From positions 1 to 64,000 of the forward strand of contig JBHHTW010000006.1 of assembly GCA_046861385.1 (NCBI GenBank): a stretch of 64,000 nucleotides of DNA, in the 5' to 3' direction. Shown in pieces: positions 34,647 through 59,456 of this stretch (the stretch's first letter is position 1; the number at the start of each line of letters is the position of its first letter). The stretch comes from Fidelibacterota bacterium. GTDB taxonomy: Bacteria; Fidelibacterota; Marinisomatia; Marinisomatales; TCS55. The translations under genes were made by a program, and so were the position numbers. The notes beneath the pieces are model-generated. The model did not search any database. It saw only the letters and a program-made list of their open reading frames with translations, and had not been told where the DNA came from.

Positions 34647-35481
34647 AGTTATCTATAAAAAAAGCCAGTAATCCTGCAATTGTACTGAATTTTAATACCT
34701 CGGAAAATCGTTTTGCCTGTTTAATTTCAGGCGATTTCAGAAACGAAAATACGATCATTGCCAATGGTATTTCCACACCTAAAACAAGAATAATCAAATA
34801 TAAGAGTCCATAATATCCCAAGATAAAGGGAATCGGTGATCCCAGCCCAATAATAAATGCAGCGGTGATGGTAATGTAACCTGATTTACGCATTCCAAAT
34901 TTTACAGGAAACGTGTTCAGTCCGGCTTTTGTATCTCCTTCAATGTCCGCCATATCTTTTACGAGTTCCCGGACAAATGTGAGTCCAAATGCTAATAGTG
35001 CAGGAATAATCATCGGTTCTATATTATTAAAGGCTGCCCCGGCAAAAATAAATGCTAATCCCAAAATCAATGCTATTGATGCATTTCCTATTAAGGGTGT
35101 TCCTTTCAGGCTCCCACTGTAAATAATCATAATAGGCATTGAAATTCCGATAGCGATGACACGAGCAATCATTGGTAAACCAAAAGCGAATATACTCCCA
35201 GCCACAAAAAGAATAACAGCCAAGGACATGGCTGTTTTAATTTTTACATGCCCCGTAACCAAAGGTCGTTTGGGCCGATTTACTGTATCTGCTTTGTAAT
35301 CTTTTACATCGTTGTATGCATTGGCAGCGGCATTGTAACACACCACAACACCAATCGTTATTAACAATGTTTTCGTTTCATAAAAACTATCTAATATACC
35401 AGCGCTGACTACCATAGCAAACCCACTGGTCAATAAATTCAACGGACGCAATAGTTGAATATGCCACCAGATAAAATTCAT
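34636..35481 (-). CDS. UbiA-family prenyltransferase, DGGGP-synthase-like
   Basis: NDVKDYKADTVNRPKRPLVTG and RELVKDMADIEGD...G..TFP; multiple TMs. Confidence 0.8.
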   Translation of the reverse strand: MNFIWWHIQLLRPLNLLTSGFAMVVSAGILDSFYETKTLLITIGVVVCYNAAANAYNDVKDYKADTVNRPKRPLVTGHVKIKTAMSLAVILFVAGSIFAFGLPMIARVIAIGISMPIMIIYSGSLKGTPLIGNASIALILGLAFIFAGAAFNNIEPMIIPALLAFGLTFVRELVKDMADIEGDTKAGLNTFPVKFGMRKSGYITITAAFIIGLGSPIPFILGYYGLLYLIILVLGVEIPLAMIVFSFLKSPEIKQAKRFSEVLKFSTIAGLLAFFIDNYVN

Positions 35482-36341
35482 TTTACCTGCACTTTTAATA
35501 TTCGACTATCTCCATTAAAATCAGATATAAATTTTATTTGTTCAAAATCATTGGTTTGAAAATATTCACCTGCTTTTTGGGGATGATCCTCGAGACCAAC
35601 TTCCATAATCAGCCAGCCATTGGGACGGACCCATTTCTTCGCTTCCTTGGCTAAATGTCTATAAAATGTGAGACCGTCACGATGATCTGTAAGCGCCTGA
35701 TGGGGTTCATACCCTCGAACTTCCTTCATGATAGTATCCATTTCATCTTGGGGAATATACGGTGGGTTCATCAGTAACCCATTATAGATCGGTTCCAAAG
35801 GATGATAATTTAAAAAATCAGATTCATTGAATTTCACGTTTGATACTTTATTCAATGCTGCATTCTCTTCTGCGATTGCCAAACTTTTTAATGAGATATC
35901 TAATCCGTCTAATATTGAATGGAATAATTCGGCAGCAACTGATATAGCTATACATCCTGATCCGGTTCCAATATCAACCAATCGTGGATGTTCAAATTCT
36001 TGAAATGTATAGAGGGCAACATCTACCAAACGTTCTGTTTCCTGTCTGGGGATTAATACGTCTTTGGTCACCTTAAATCGTCTTCCGTAAAATTCTGTCC
36101 ATCCGGTGATATATTGCGCCGGTTCGCCGGATGAGCGTCTTTTAACCCATTGTTTAAAAATAATCTCTTGTTCTTTGGAAATCTGAAAATCGATTAACTG
36201 AAGTTCTGAAAGTTTACAATTAAGTAGTGAGGATAAAAGCCATTTTGCCTCTTGTTGTGGATCATCAACATGTGACGACAATTGATTCGCTGACCAATCC
36301 AGCCAATATTTGATTTGATTGTCTATTGGAACCGGGACCAT
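35478..36341 (-). CDS. prmC: Release factor glutamine methyltransferase
   Basis: GEPAQYI, VLIPRQETE, DIGTGSG, NPPY; follows prfA. Confidence 0.95.
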   Translation of the reverse strand: MVPVPIDNQIKYWLDWSANQLSSHVDDPQQEAKWLLSSLLNCKLSELQLIDFQISKEQEIIFKQWVKRRSSGEPAQYITGWTEFYGRRFKVTKDVLIPRQETERLVDVALYTFQEFEHPRLVDIGTGSGCIAISVAAELFHSILDGLDISLKSLAIAEENAALNKVSNVKFNESDFLNYHPLEPIYNGLLMNPPYIPQDEMDTIMKEVRGYEPHQALTDHRDGLTFYRHLAKEAKKWVRPNGWLIMEVGLEDHPQKAGEYFQTNDFEQIKFISDFNGDSRILKVQVK

Positions 36342-37402
36342 CAGTCCCCCGCTAATAGCTCCTGTTGTTCTGCAAGTTTTAATTGCTCAATCAGTTCTTT
36401 AATATTGCCATTCAATACTTCTTCCAAATTATACGCTGTATAATTGATTCGATGATCTGTAATTCGTCCTTGTGAATAATTATATGTACGGATTTTTGCC
36501 GAACGGTCGCCCGTGGATACCATAGATTTCCGGACATCAGCCCTCTCTTGCGCCAACCGCTCTTGTTCTTGCGCCAATAATCTTGAACGCAACACTTTCA
36601 TTGCCAATAAACGATTTTGATGCTGAGATTTTTCATCCTGGCATGATACAACCAAACCCGATGGCAGATGGGTAATGCGTATGGCAGATTCTGTTTTATT
36701 CACATGCTGACCACCCGCGCCACTGGCGCGGAAGGTATCAATTTTTAAGTCATTTTCATTAATCTCCACTTCTGCTTCTTCAGCTTCAGGCAAAACGGCT
36801 ACGGTGGCAGCTGATGTATGCACACGCCCGCCAGCTTCGGTCTTTGGAACACGCTGAACACGGTGTACACCGCTCTCATATTTCATAAATCCAAAGGCGC
36901 CTTTACCCGTGATGGAAAAAATGATTTCCTTATAACCACCAATTCCTGTTTCATTTACATTCATCACTTCGCTCAACCAATTGTTTCGTTCTGCATAGTG
37001 GGTATACATGCGATATAAGTCTGCTGCAAACAGAGCCGCTTCCTCGCCGCCGGTTCCCGCACGAATTTCAACTATCGTATTCTTATTATCATTTGGGTTT
37101 TTGGGCAACAACAATGTTTTAAGTTCTTCTTCTAATAATTTTTTCTGTCCCCTCAATTCAGACAATTCCTCCTGGGCAATCTCTTTCAGGTCTGTTTCAT
37201 CGCTTAATAGAATTTCTTCATCGTCTTCAATTTGTCGGATAACAGATAAATATTCTTCCCCCTTATTTACAATAGCAGATAATTGACTGTGTTCTTGGGC
37301 CGTTACTCGTAACATGTCTTGATTGGTCATCACAGCTGTTTCGGTTAATAACCGACCCAATTCATTATACCGGGCGATAACTTTTTCGATTTTATCCTTC
37401 AT
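36341..37402 (-). CDS. prfA: Peptide chain release factor 1
   Basis: VPKT (PxT) motif, [12 protein letters not shown]. Confidence 0.97.
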
Positions 37403-38361
37403 TAGATAGCATCGGCCATATATTTTTTACCTGCCATTTTATTATATTGATCGCCAAAGGCATTTTTTAAGGCGGTAATCGCCACTTCAATCATATCATC
37501 ATCCGGCGGTTGAGTGGTAATCCTCTGCAGCCATAATCCTGGAGCCCTCAACGCATGAAAAAACAGATTTTTATCCTTACGAGCTGTGAGTTTAATAATT
37601 TCATAGGATACACCGGCAACGATTGGCATAAGGGGTAAATGAAATGCAATGCGATAAAATATGGTAATTTCGCCCATTATGGCTATAATGATTGTATCAA
37701 TCAAAGCAAAGACAAGGATAGCTGATAACAAAACAATGAAAAGGAAACTGGTTCCGCAACGAGGGTGGTAGGTTGGAAATGATTGGGCATTTTCAATAGT
37801 AACATTTTTCCCCGACTCAAAATTGAATACCACGCGGTGTTCTGCGCCATGATAGCGAAAAAGACGCTTCACATCTTTCATCATAGAAATAGCTAATAAA
37901 TACAAAATGAAAAATGAGATGCGAAAACACCCTGAAATCAAATTAAAAAATAAGGCATCTCTCTCTATATCCATTAACCATGTTGTAATCCACAAAGGAG
38001 CGACAACAAACATCCCAATCGCAAAGCCAATCGCAAATAACATTGAAAGTGAATTTGACAGTTTTCCGGGTTTTTTATCGGCTTCATCCGGCATGGCAAT
38101 ATCCGCGGACCATTGCAAAGTGGACATACCCATTTTCATAGATTCGAATAAAGCCATGATTCCCCTTAACACAGGCCATTTCCAGAAGGACGATGATTCC
38201 ACTTGAGAAATGAATGCATGTTTATCTATATGCATCTTACCCTCTGGATCACGTACAGCTGTAGCATATGCGCCCGGAACACGCATCATCACTCCTTCGA
38301 TGACGGCTTGCCCGCCAACAAGAATGGACGGTTTCATGAATGCGATTAGCAATTGTTTCAT
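37402..38361 (-). CDS. DUF1385 membrane protein
   Basis: [30 protein letters not shown]; the start could also be at 38337 or 38367. Confidence 0.9.
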
Positions 38362-38365
38362 AGAC

Positions 38366-38407
38366 AAAAAATTGGCTCCGTGCAGGAAATTCCTGTCTCC
38401 GGAGCCA
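38366..38407 (-). terminator. Putative intrinsic terminator after rpmE
   Basis: TGGCTCCG/CGGAGCCA outer stem plus CAGGAA/TTCCTG inner stem, followed by a U run on the minus strand. Confidence 0.6.
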
Positions 38408-38425
38408 TCATATGTTTATAATAAG

Positions 38426-38632
38426 TTACCGGGTGGTTTTAGCGTATTTCGCCTTAAACTTTTCGATACGTCCGGCTGTATCTACCAACTTTTGTTTTCC
38501 TGAGAAAAACGGGTGGCAAACCGAACAGATATCAAGACGCTGATCTCCAACAGTACTGTACACTTCGAATGAATGACCGCAAGCGCAATGTACTTTGCCA
38601 AGTTTATATTCGGGATGGATTCCCTGTTTCAT
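38426..38632 (-). CDS. rpmE: 50S ribosomal protein L31 (Zn-binding type)
   Basis: [13 protein letters not shown]...[27 protein letters not shown]. Confidence 0.97.
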
Positions 38633-38646
38633 AATAAAACTCCTTA

Positions 38647-39855
38647 TTAATTCAATTGTTTTAATGCGTATGCTACTTTGGATATGCCTCTTCGAATTGT
38701 ATCCCTATCCGTAGCGCACGAAAATCTTATATGCCCTGGCGCTCCGAAACCGTCCCCGGGAACGGTCACCACAGACCCAGAATTTAATATATATCCACTC
38801 AGATCGAAAGAATCCTGAATAATTTTACCATTGATCTTTTTTCCGATATAATGAGACATATTTGGAAATGTATAAAATGCGCCACCGGGGATTGCACAGG
38901 AAACGCCAGGAATTTCATTCAATAAACCCACCATTAAATCGCGGCGTTTTTTAAACTTCAACCTCATTTCCTCCACAGGTCGTTGATCACCGGTTAATGC
39001 TGCAATGGCAGCACGCTGACCTATGGAATTCGCACAGGATGTTGCCTGACCTTGAACCTTGCTCATGGCTTTAATGATCGCCTGCTCTCCCGCTGCATAT
39101 CCAATTCGCCAACCTGTCATGGCGTAGGTTTTTGAAAGACTCATACATGTGATTACTCTTGCGCCAATATTATGATCACGATTCAATTTTTCGGCGCTGA
39201 TAAATCCTCCATCAAAAATCAGTCGTTCATAACATTCGTCTGAAATCACAGTCCAATCACGGTTTGCTGCAATATTTAACAGCCTCATTAGTGCTTCCGA
39301 GCTCCACACTCCCCCGGTTGGATTAGATGGGGAATTAACAATGACACCTTTAATATTTTCCGTGGTTTTCTTTTCCAAATCATTGAAATCTACTTCAAAT
39401 TGCTTTTGGGAAAGCGTATTTACGATGATGGGTTCAGCATCTGCCAACCGTACAAATTCAGGAAACGATACCCAGTACGGTGTAAAAATAACCACTTCAT
39501 CACCTTGATCAAATAAAACTTGACAGGCGTTGTACAGGCTTTGTTTTTCACCATTTGAAACCAGAATTTCGTTTGGAATATATTCCAAACCGTTTTCCCT
39601 TTTTAATTTCTCACAAATCGCCTGGCGGAGTTCAATCATGCCGGAGCCAGCTGTATACTTTGTATATCCGTCGTCCATTGCTTTTTTCCCAGCCTCGATG
39701 ATATGATCCGGTGTATTAAAATCGGGCTCTCCTACGCTGAAGTTGATTACGTCAATGCCTTGAAATCGCATTTCAGCTGCCTTTGAAGCCATTTCCAGAG
39801 TATACGAAGGCTTCACCCGTGAAACGCGTTTTGCGAACTTGAGTTGAGATGTCAT
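38647..39855 (-). CDS. Class I PLP-dependent (aspartate-type) aminotransferase
   Basis: [33 protein letters not shown]. Confidence 0.95.
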
Positions 39856-40944
39856 TTATAATTTATGCTGTTTTTTATGAAATTCAGGACTGTTGAATTT
39901 TGCATCTTCAGGACTGGCGTTGTCTGATACATCTATTTCAGAAAACGAATCATCTGTTTCTATCTCAAATTCTTCAGATAGTACTTTTTTACTGCTCTTC
40001 CTAACCGGTTTTTTCGTGGGCTTTCTCACGTTTTTTTTCACCGTCTTTTTTCCCGGTTTTTTAATTGGCTTTTCGTCTAGTTTTTCATCTTTTTCTTTAT
40101 CTTGTTTTTTGTTAGTCGTTTCCTTTTTAACTCTATTTCGTTTTGGTTTCGGAACATCTTTCATCGAGACACCTTCGAGATCAGACTCCGCATAAGCAAT
40201 TTGTGCCTCGGCTTCTTTTTTCTCAACATTTTCGTCTAATTCTTCCAGATCGAATTGAAAGGACTTTGGGTTAAACATACCATATAGTGCTCCATAACCG
40301 CGCGTAATTCCATTTCCAATTCCCATATAATTCGGGAGGAGAAAGTTGGTTCGAAATTCACCGGAAAATGCTCCCCAGAAACGTTCATCAACTGGTTTTG
40401 GAAACATGGAGGTTAGGTTCACTTTTGTAAAGATTTTGTCAGTGATCTCAACTCCCATTTCACGGGCAAGAAATACAATGTTTTGTCCCAAAAGCCGATT
40501 CAGAAATGATATACGTTCCATATTATTCAAGAAACGATAGCGACTGCCTGTGGTTTGATTTAACGCTACCCAGGGGGTCAGAAATCGATACCTGATTAAT
40601 CTGTCCACTTGTCTAAAGTGATCTGAGTTGGATACCACATCTGTATCAAACACCTGAAATGTAATATTGCCAAAGTCCAATATGTCGAGTCTGTCTGCTA
40701 ATTCTATAACAGGATCCACTCCTTCATGGATTCCGACAATATATATTTGCTCATTCAGGATTTTTACTTGCACCCGGGGGTAAAGAAATTGATCCCGGTA
40801 TGTACCATCCATCATTGAAATTACTTCCAAATCAGGATATTGACGCATAAAGACACCTTTAACCTGATATGGCGTCTTTCTGACTGGCTTATCCGTTAAA
40901 ACACGAACAGTAACTGTGCGCACCTCACTGTTACTATATTCCAT
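39856..40944 (-). CDS. cas6: Stand-alone Cas6b-like RAMP protein with charged disordered C-terminal tail
   Basis: YPRVQVK, IVGIHEG, YRFLTPWVALNQ, LLGQNI, FSGEFRTNFLLPNYMGIGNGITRGYG (Cas6 Gly-rich loop); GAGGTG SD. Confidence 0.85.
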   Translation of the reverse strand: MEYSNSEVRTVTVRVLTDKPVRKTPYQVKGVFMRQYPDLEVISMMDGTYRDQFLYPRVQVKILNEQIYIVGIHEGVDPVIELADRLDILDFGNITFQVFDTDVVSNSDHFRQVDRLIRYRFLTPWVALNQTTGSRYRFLNNMERISFLNRLLGQNIVFLAREMGVEITDKIFTKVNLTSMFPKPVDERFWGAFSGEFRTNFLLPNYMGIGNGITRGYGALYGMFNPKSFQFDLEELDENVEKKEAEAQIAYAESDLEGVSMKDVPKPKRNRVKKETTNKKQDKEKDEKLDEKPIKKPGKKTVKKNVRKPTKKPVRKSSKKVLSEEFEIETDDSFSEIDVSDNASPEDAKFNSPEFHKKQHKL

Positions 40945-41003
40945 ATTTACACCTCATTAGTTAGTTATAATAAAAGGACTGCACCTTTAGCAGTAAGTTA
41001 CAT

Positions 41004-42251
41004 TTATTGATTCATAGTTTCCATAAATTCTTCATTGCTCTTTGTCCGCTTCATTCTTGTATGCATAAACTCCATTGCTTCAATAACGTTCATTTCATTT
41101 AAGAGTTTCCTTAAAATCCACATTCTTCCAAGTGTCTTTTTATCCAGGAGCAATTCTTCTTTTCTTGTCCCGGAACGCACAATATCAAACGACGGGTATA
41201 TACGACGGTCACTTAGGCGGCGGTCTAAAACAAGTTCCATATTACCTGTTCCTTTAAACTCCTCAAAAATGACTTCATCCATCCTGCTTCCTGTGTCGAT
41301 CAAGGCGGTGGCAATAATTGATAAACTTCCACTTTCTTCAGTGTTTCTTGCTGCACCAAAAAATTGTTTCGGTTTTTTTAAAGCATTGGAATCAACACCA
41401 CCAGATAAAATTTTACCACTGTGTGGAATGACTGCGTTGTGAGCACGCCCTAGGCGTGTAAGGCTATCAAGTAATATGACTACATCATGGCCATATTCTA
41501 CCATGCGCCTTGCTTTTTGCAAAACCATATCTGCAACGGCAACGTGACGTTCGGGTGGTTCATCAAAAGTAGAGCTCACCACTTCTGCATCGACATGTTG
41601 TTTCATATCTGTTACTTCTTCCGGGCGTTCATCAATTAATAGGATAATTAATTTGATTTCCGGATGATTATTCAATAATGAATTAGCGATTTTTTGCAGC
41701 AGAACTGTTTTTCCTGTCTTTGGTTGAGCTACAATCAATCCTCGCTGTCCTTTCCCAATAGGAGAAATTAAATCCATAATCCTGGTTGATAAATCCTTTG
41801 GATCCGTTTCCAGGTTGAATTTTTTATCTGGATATTTTGGTGTTAGATTATCAAACAAGATTCCTTTTTTAACTTGATCCGGCGATTCGTCATTCACCGT
41901 TTCCAGTTTCAGCAGCGCGTAAAACCTTTCTTTTTCTTTTGGCTTTCGAATTTGCCCATAAACAGAATGTCCTGTTTTTAAACCGAAACGCTTAATTTGC
42001 GACGGACTCACATAAATATCATCCTGACCCGGTAAATAGTTATAATCAGGGCTTCTTAAAAAGCCGTAACCTTCGTTCAATACTTCCAGAACTCCTCTGG
42101 CGTGTAAAACGCCTTCTTTCTCGTTTTGTGCTTCAAGAACTTTAATAATTAATCCCTGCTTATTCAAGCCGGAAGAGCCCTGGATCTTTAAATCCTGAGC
42201 CAATTTTACCAGTTCTTTAATATTTAGGGATTGTAGTTGATTAACATCCAT
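41004..42251 (-). CDS. rho: Transcription termination factor Rho
   Basis: [55 protein letters not shown]. Confidence 0.98.
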
Positions 42252-57731: not shown

Positions 57732-59386
<1,655 letters not shown>

Positions 59387-59395
<9 letters not shown>

Positions 59396-59456
59396 TTAAT
59401 GGTAACTGGTGAGTGGTAACTGGTGAGTGGTAACTGGTGAGTGGTAACTGGTGGGT
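59387..59456. repeat. Tandem heptamer array, (GGTAACT GGTGAGT)n
   Basis: Three perfect and one near-perfect 14-mers at 59401-59456, preceded by two further heptamers. Confidence 0.9.

Follow-up and report, generated by a model that had tools for sequence, protein, structure and literature searches.

The window, the 64,000-nt stretch of DNA that we analyzed, encodes a true homolog of the CRISPR nuclease Cas6b from a gene that is not CRISPR-associated, but is a vertically inherited housekeeping gene linked to rho. We consider it probable that this histidine-less protein descends from a Cas6b that left CRISPR-Cas, and that it holds rather than cuts RNA and has a role in the handling of transcripts. 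To us it has the look of a CRISPR component put to new use in routine RNA work, because it combines Cas6b descent, loss of the catalytic histidines, the lack of a detected CRISPR system and a place behind rho.

A Cas6b homolog with an intact fold

The open reading frame (39856..40944, minus strand; 362 amino acids plus stop, from the list of open reading frames and its translation) comprises a Cas6b_N domain, a Cas6b_C domain and a charged tail of about 130 residues. Both Cas6b_N (residues 7–102, 40639..40926, minus strand; Pfam PF17955, E 4.1e-10, 40.1 bits against a cut-off of 25) and Cas6b_C (residues 114–220, 40285..40605, minus strand; PF17262, E 4.5e-24, 85.3 bits against a cut-off of 39.4) exceeded the curated Pfam cut-offs, which places the protein in the Cas6b family, and a genome-wide search, which located Cas6b_C at identical coordinates, showed that this gene holds the sole Cas6b_C match in its own genome. 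The PADLOC models gave the protein 139 bits (Cas6) and 134 bits (Cas6b), compared to 236 and 216 bits for a canonical paralog from the same genus; NCBIfam gave no matches to the protein at E values up to 1.

Structural comparisons also led to Cas6b. The only real match in a phmmer search of solved structures was Methanococcus maripaludis Cas6b (MmCas6b; 4z7k/4z7l, E 8.3e-28), and an AF2 model of residues 1–235 based on a 20-sequence alignment (pLDDT 90.6, pTM 0.85) had 4z7k_A as its best structural match (Foldseek E 2.6e-19, TM 0.76/0.81). VIA-align aligned 211 of 218 residues of the model on 4z7k_A with 28% identity (Z 24.1, rmsd 2.3 Å), and its next match was type IV Cas6/Csf5 (Z 16–17). The modeled fold is the two-lobed ferredoxin-like (RAMP) fold, and it superposes on solved Cas6b. 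Also retained is the glycine-rich loop GIGNGITRGYG (residues 208–218, 40291..40323, minus strand), a hallmark of RNA binding in Cas6, which is conserved in the alignments: G208, G210, N211, I213, T214, G216 and G218 are invariant among 21 orthologs, and G210, I213, G216 and G218 are invariant in the phylum-wide set. The initial annotation had held that the structural motifs persist, and we found all three of Y55-P56, the PW..LN motif and the glycine-rich loop in place.

Loss of the catalytic histidines is fixed in the family

The segment in which catalytic residues had been reported missing (40777–40866, minus strand, within 40760–40880) does translate exactly to QVKGVFMRQYPDLEVISMMDGTYRDQFLYP, residues 27–56, and the translated protein has no histidine before GIHEG (residues 71–75). 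The residue matches proposed in the initial annotation agree with the phmmer alignment to 4z7k, which pairs K29 with R24, S43 with H38, M44 with N39, F53 with Y47, and Y55-P56 with Y49-P50; H40 of 4z7k falls on a gap or on M45. The former catalytic loop, S43-M44-M45 (40810..40818, minus strand), is in this alignment the counterpart of H38-N39-H40 of M. maripaludis Cas6b, such that the protein has neither the catalytic histidine pair nor an equivalent of Tyr47, its place being taken by F53. In MmCas6b, according to Richter et al. 2012 (PMC3479195), H38A or H40A singly leaves activity in place, the H38A/H40A double mutation causes a drastic loss and Y47A reduces activity. The double mutant bears out the earlier statement that His38 and His40 matter for cleavage, and since the 4z7k alignment and these mutants agree with them, the facts about Cas6b given in the initial annotation were correct.

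The lack of histidine in 70 residues of a single protein could be due to chance, but a loss specific to the site, judged from aligned relatives, exceeds chance. We compared 39 order-level orthologs, obtained from 39 of 41 related genomes, and found that all 39 fit the pattern [PS][MLFY][MLI][DN]G and none has a histidine at the site. All 14 distant relatives, which are shorter proteins (220–263 amino acids) of other classes in the phylum, likewise lack histidine at the site. We also searched 1.84 billion cluster representatives with a profile, which yielded 1584 proteins at E values up to 1e-3, and examined the best 150; 129 of these 150 cover the catalytic site. Among these best 150 of 1584, a histidine is found at the site in 0 of 28 representatives with the family signature compared to 97 of 101 others, mostly as H-[NQH]-H, and the remaining representatives without it (P0026, P0032, P0036 and P0136) are separate cases. 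Family-wide, the pattern at the former catalytic loop is [PSDQ][MFY][ILV][DNSA]G. The Tyr47 column, again among the best 150 of 1584, is Y in nearly all canonical representatives compared to F/Y/V/L in the His-less family, and this freedom to vary suggests that selection on the former active site has relaxed. The initial annotation had proposed an alignment with active Cas6b proteins and orthologs as a check; its outcome, with no histidine in any of the three family sets, indicates that the catalytic histidine loss is fixed across the phylum-wide family.

We also considered H73 of GIHEG as a replacement catalytic histidine, and rejected it since its column is H/N/G/Q/K/A/E among orthologs. Stray histidines occur in the first 60 residues of 17 of the 39 orthologs, at positions that vary and are never conserved; the window's protein has none.

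Binding or cutting RNA

From the missing residues, we infer that the protein probably binds RNA and does not cut it. The description as a nuclease-dead Cas6 in the initial annotation can be upheld for the homology, for the replacement of the histidine pair and Tyr47 and its fixation, and for the retention of the RNA-binding loop; the claim of a nuclease-dead binder is supported only in part, because Cas6 enzymes without the histidine can still cut (PMC3652601). The same source describes Sulfolobus solfataricus Cas6 as having no active-site histidine, yet cleaving through a network of lysines and arginine (Lys25, Lys28, Lys51 and Arg231), and a Haloferax review describes variable His/Arg/Lys/Tyr settings for Cas6 catalysis (PMC6546412).

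Based on these precedents, the protein might still be an endoribonuclease that cuts a housekeeping RNA, rather than crRNA, with a His-free Arg/Lys/Tyr active site resembling that of crenarchaeal Cas6. We regard this alternative as a real possibility, although clearly the less probable one. Several residues near the former site are conserved as it would predict: R50, Y55 and R57 are invariant and K29 is at least 90% conserved at the order level, and R50 and R57 are at least 90% conserved across the phylum. The N-terminal TDKPVRKTPYQVKG segment is very strongly constrained, which would also fit a role in catalysis or in substrate positioning. Single histidine mutants of MmCas6b stay active (PMC3479195), and this and the scattered nearby histidines in 17 of 39 orthologs count against a protein that only binds. 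On the other hand, the two histidines and the Tyr47 position were abandoned together, the Tyr47 column varies among F, Y, V and L in the family where canonical representatives nearly always have Y, and such an enzyme would be one without any known substrate. We favor a protein that holds RNA.

The gene is independent of CRISPR-Cas

In the initial annotation, the gene was framed as a component of a type I-B CRISPR system, a framing that is contradicted by the absent Cas genes and array, by vertical inheritance and by the linkage to rho. We did not find Cas1, Cas5d or DevR/Cas7 in the gene's own genome (2.43 Mb, 104 contigs, 97.85% complete), with searches that each gave matches in control genomes. 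No CRISPR-like repeats were found within the window, and a k-mer scan of the whole genome found no CRISPR array, with the reservation that draft assemblies can lose arrays; as far as the draft assembly goes, the gene is not encoded with an array and other cas genes. Two repeat runs were examined and rejected as CRISPR: one is a tandem repeat of 77 nt with which contig C17 begins, the other a protein-coding repeat in contig C72.

We then compared the distribution of the gene to that of Cas1 in 300 genomes of the phylum plus the window's own. In the window's order, tallied over 15 families with family f12 excluded, the Cas6b-like gene is present in 114 of 114 sampled genomes and Cas1 in 14 of 114; in family f21, the counts are 9 of 10 and 0 of 10. 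The tally for the phylum (162 of 301) mixes rho-linked and canonical Cas6b genes outside the inspected loci, because the matches in families f22, f27 and f28 (E ~1e-32 to 1e-36) may be canonical Cas6b. The gene occurs whether or not a genome carries CRISPR-Cas, and where CRISPR genes are present in a genome of the same genus, an extra, ordinary His-bearing Cas6b of 218–228 amino acids is encoded as well (loci L041–L043).

These observations leave very little probability for an ordinary Cas6b that processes crRNA for a CRISPR-Cas system located elsewhere or unassembled. Some members are publicly annotated as 'CRISPR-associated endonuclease Cas6', metagenome bins often miss CRISPR arrays, and Cas1 does occur in those 14 genomes of the order. 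However, this explanation has to accommodate a 97.85%-complete genome in which Cas1, Cas5 and Cas7 were not found, 100 of 114 gene-carrying genomes without a detected Cas1, a fixed place behind rho with vertical inheritance, unlike mobile cas loci, and the use of a separate His-bearing Cas6b by the CRISPR-bearing genomes of the same genus.

Vertical descent under purifying selection

We built a quick maximum-likelihood tree of 143 rows, which comprise 119 of the best 150 representatives (31 fragments were dropped) and 24 locus sequences; the tree is unrooted and has SH-aLRT support only. A branch with SH-aLRT 94 sets apart all 21 of the 21 rho-linked sequences, 17 of 18 family representatives and P0026, and the 18th family representative, P0020, joins the rho-linked group at SH-aLRT 70. 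The branching inside the rho-linked group tracks genus, family, order, class and phylum, and the canonical Cas6b sequences of Marinimicrobia lie far off, among ordinary Cas6b. The topology argues for a single origin and vertical descent of the rho-linked family. P0026 is the His-less representative that branches inside the family, and a metagenome scan with it gave no confirmed locus.

The Cas6b-like domain is under strong purifying selection. Between the window and locus L003, dN/dS (Nei-Gojobori) was 0.020 in the domain (dS 0.70) and 0.21 in the tail; more distant pairs gave 0.025–0.065 in the domain, with dS near saturation. In locus L029, identity to the window was 56% for the domain, 57% for the aminotransferase encoded nearby and 75% for Rho, and across loci the domain diverges about as the aminotransferase does and faster than Rho. 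The lost catalytic residues and the repeated absence of the gene in several lineages might suggest a functionless, decaying relic, but the reading frame is intact in every ortholog, full-length identity across the order is 37–76% with dozens of invariant positions, and the dN/dS of 0.02 in the domain already contradicts decay. We give a relic next to no probability.

The gene follows rho across the phylum

In the window, the gene lies directly downstream of rho (41004..42251, minus strand; 415 amino acids; Pfam Rho_N, Rho_RNA_bind and ATP-synt_ab), within a run of genes that are all on the minus strand: amidase, murI, folC-like ligase, rho, the Cas6b-like gene, class I/II aminotransferase, rpmE, DUF1385, prfA and prmC. 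In 132 of 132 locus records with the Cas6b-like gene, drawn from across the phylum, tblastn placed rho immediately upstream and in the same orientation. Of these records, 38 come from related genomes, 80 from a scan of GTDB species genomes and 14 from other classes, the first two sets overlapping; in 5 of the 132, rho is truncated by the end of the record or aligned only in part. All five distant loci examined with Pfam have Rho_N, Rho_RNA_bind and the ATPase domain in the upstream gene, and the gene downstream of the Cas6b-like gene in these loci is an aminotransferase (three), UbiA (one) or signal peptidase II (one). The canonical paralogs of the same genus (L041–L043) have no rho nearby (0 of 3).

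The gap between rho and the Cas6b-like gene is mostly 13–160 nt, with outliers of 413 and 642 nt. Since gaps of this size make co-transcription with rho probable, the amount of the Cas6b-like protein would follow that of Rho; probable production from the rho transcript in turn suggests that its job is most likely in transcript handling (termination, stability or processing).

Rho does not depend on the gene, because rho is present in families where the gene was not found. Of 301 genomes from the phylum, 291 have Rho_RNA_bind, and the Cas6b-like gene was not found in sampled genomes of families f12 (0 of 30), f17 (0 of 15) and f30 (0 of 9). In one f12 and one f17 genome (G104 and G046), the aminotransferase gene comes right after rho, with rpmE next. 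The absence from f12 is most simply a loss, because f12 genomes are only ~1 Mb and all other sampled families of the order carry the gene. Adjacency alone is insufficient to show that rho and the Cas6b-like gene share a function.

A charged tail with conserved islands

The C-terminal tail (residues 231–362, 39859..40254, minus strand) is by composition acidic, then lysine-rich, then acidic, with 33 K/R and 31 D/E among 132 residues. It is mostly predicted to be disordered, with pLDDT mostly under 55 in a full-length AF2 model of mean pLDDT 74.9. The sole part of the tail predicted to be ordered in this model is a segment of the type ESDLEGV..DVPKPKR, in the AESDLEGVSMKDVPKPKR region (residues 251–270, 40135..40194, minus strand; pLDDT 76–80, with short strands), which is conserved among orthologs. 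A second conserved island is KKVLSEEF[DE]IE, and the third is the C-terminal motif KFNSPEFHKKQHKL (residues 349–362, 39859..39900, minus strand), a [FY]N-x3-[FY]H-x3-H peptide whose core, [FY]N-x3-[FY]H, occurs in 39 of 39 orthologs; within the motif, N351 and H356 never vary, and H360 reaches at least 90% conservation. In the window's order, 35–132 residues extend beyond the domain. Since the short forms of other classes lack the tail, it was added later to a protein that was already rho-linked and His-less. With only the tail as query, ESM Atlas returned no score of 0.9 or above, and only fragments of the family.

We considered that the protein might act through contact with Rho itself, as an accessory or regulatory subunit that docks via the Cas6b fold or the C-terminal peptide. 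The adjacency of the genes in all 132 locus records and the conservation of the peptide in all 39 orthologs would fit such a subunit, as would the Rho of one genome (G104, 428 amino acids) of the genome-reduced f12, in which the gene was not found and Rho has a K/N/D-rich insertion after Rho_N. But most genomes of the phylum in which we did not find the gene do encode Rho, the Rho of family f17 is a plain protein of 415 amino acids even though the gene is missing there, and the short forms of other classes are still rho-linked without a tail. We consider a Rho subunit quite unlikely, and prefer a protein that acts on RNA.

A candidate RNA element in the leader

The 59-nt spacer between rho and the Cas6b-like gene (40945..41003, minus strand) contains, by a scan for terminator-like structures, a terminator-like hairpin (40978–40994) followed by the Shine-Dalgarno sequence GAGGTG, and GTGCAG (40979–40984) forms the loop of this small hairpin. 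At least 92 of the order-level spacers, counting that of the window, are distinct. Of these 92, 43 contain GTGTAG (GTGCAG in the window) at 24–45 nt before the start codon, compared to 0.9 on average and at most 3 when spacers are shuffled, statistics that ignore kinship. RNAalifold found no consensus structure in 29 of 41 motif-anchored windows, the other 12 being omitted as near-duplicates or weak matches to the motif. The leader motif also showed no genome-wide enrichment (GGTGTAGC, 39 copies compared to a permutation mean of 41), and no Rfam families or tRNA genes were found within the window. The GGUGUAG-type leader element is a candidate RNA target of the protein, which would mean autoregulation.

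A proposed path from CRISPR nuclease to housekeeping protein

Taken together, the sequence data suggest that the product most likely binds RNA and was taken over for housekeeping RNA metabolism. In the scheme that we propose, a type I-B Cas6b would have parted from CRISPR-Cas early in the history of the phylum Marinimicrobia (Marinisomatota/Fidelibacterota), and would since have passed down vertically in the position right after rho, keeping the two-lobed fold and the glycine-rich loop and giving up the histidine pair and the tyrosine. The present protein would bind RNA in a sequence- or shape-specific manner, holding rather than cutting it, and the RNA would be left uncut by the protein or be cut by a different chemistry only. 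In the window's order, the lysine-rich disordered tail may add general affinity for nucleic acids, and the conserved C-terminal peptide may dock a partner.

A bolder version, which we think rather unlikely, is an exaptation in which a CRISPR nuclease lent its RNA-recognition module to the control of transcription termination. The His-less protein would recognize a short RNA element, for which the GGUGUAG-type leader motif is the first candidate, and mark transcripts for Rho or protect them from it, with the lysine-rich tail and the C-terminal His-bearing peptide as the effector arm. If this version is true, the phylum would have a Rho cofactor of its own, and one derived from CRISPR.

Re-use of Cas proteins is known, mostly from mobile elements or from other defense systems, and SAR406 is among the most abundant uncultured phyla of the ocean. 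Here, a Cas6 RAMP protein appears to have turned into a core, vertically inherited gene of SAR406 that is tied to rho and detached from immunity, and it would provide a natural example of a crRNA-processing nuclease becoming, presumably, a plain RNA-binding protein. It would also point to an undescribed layer of RNA or termination control in the phylum. In open-access papers and preprints, we found no description of a His-less, rho-linked Cas6b family. Public records name its members 'hypothetical protein' or 'CRISPR-associated endonuclease Cas6', and the latter name, given in genomes without CRISPR, is a systematic mis-annotation that inflates CRISPR counts in marine metagenomes. One member so named, a homolog of 231 amino acids that has no tail, is annotated in the cultured Fidelibacter multiformis; since a family member is annotated in a cultured organism, a role in RNA metabolism or termination is testable now.

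Comparison with known Cas6 proteins

The closest known system is MmCas6b (4z7k/4z7l), with which the protein shares the pair of domains, the fold, the Y-P motif, the PW..LN motif and the glycine-rich loop. In contrast to MmCas6b, it lacks H38, H40 and Y47, and in the window's order carries a charged tail of ~130 residues with a conserved end motif; its gene lies in a genome where no array or cas genes were found, is fixed behind rho and is inherited vertically.

S. solfataricus Cas6 (Sso1437) is alike in being a member of the Cas6 family without the canonical histidine, but differs in that, according to PMC3652601, it processes crRNA as an active nuclease within a CRISPR system, and it is only a distant structural relative (3zfv_A, Z 9.5). 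The conserved K29, R50 and R57 are candidates for a basic network of the SsoCas6 type.

The canonical paralogs of the same genus (L041–L043) belong to the same Pfam and PADLOC family and are 29–31% identical to the window's protein. They differ in their length of 218–228 amino acids, in having HNH or NNH at the site and in branching far away in the tree; their neighbors do not include rho, ORF6N is adjacent and L042 lies near a Cas12a gene.

The spacer between rho and the Cas6b-like gene

We compared the spacer between rho and the Cas6b-like gene (40945-41003, minus strand) with orthologous spacers in loci L003-L124, and found that these spacers are mostly divergent. The best-conserved element is a GTGTAG/GGTGTAGC-type hexamer (40979-40984, minus strand), which is present in 43 of 92 distinct spacers and lies 24-45 nt upstream of the ATG. 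A similar sequence, AGGTGTA, is frequently seen again at the position of the Shine-Dalgarno sequence (18/92 spacers). RNAalifold detected no common RNA structure around the hexamer. Its role might be that of a promoter, operator or processing signal.

Canonical Cas6b loci, and tandem repeats

By domain annotation, the ordinary His-bearing Cas6b genes of the same genus in genomes G002 (locus L041, 7911-9652) and G003 (locus L042, 7941-13415) are followed by a gene whose product carries an ORF6N domain and by two unknown ORFs. At L042, the next gene encodes Cas12a (REC1, REC2, PI and RuvC), broken off by the contig end. Since Cas12a processes its own crRNA, a Cas6b gene next to it is unusual; no CRISPR array was seen in this Cas6b/Cas12a stretch.

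Elsewhere in the window's own genome (39% G+C), a 77-nt G+C-rich unit is repeated head to tail at the start of contig C17, which lies outside the window (bases 1 to about 230); its three copies show no sequence differences. We rejected this run as a CRISPR array, since its "spacers" do not differ from one another. Within the window, a 14-nt tandem repeat, TGGTAACTGGTGAG, occurs in 3.9 perfect copies at 59385-59453.

Gene order around rho

In two lineages in which the Cas6b-like gene was not found, gene reading places the aminotransferase gene and rpmE immediately after rho (family f12, genome G104, locus L143, 1312-4059; family f17, genome G046, locus L140, 41-2742). The Rho protein of G104, the one f12 genome read (about 1 Mb), carries a K/N/D-rich insertion behind the Rho_N domain (428 aa versus 415); the f17 Rho is without this insertion.

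In the window, domain annotation yields the string rho ... rpmE, DUF1385, prfA, prmC (35478-42251), which resembles the Firmicutes rho-rpmE-...-prfA-prmC string. Both the Cas6b-like gene and the aminotransferase gene separate rho from rpmE in the window.
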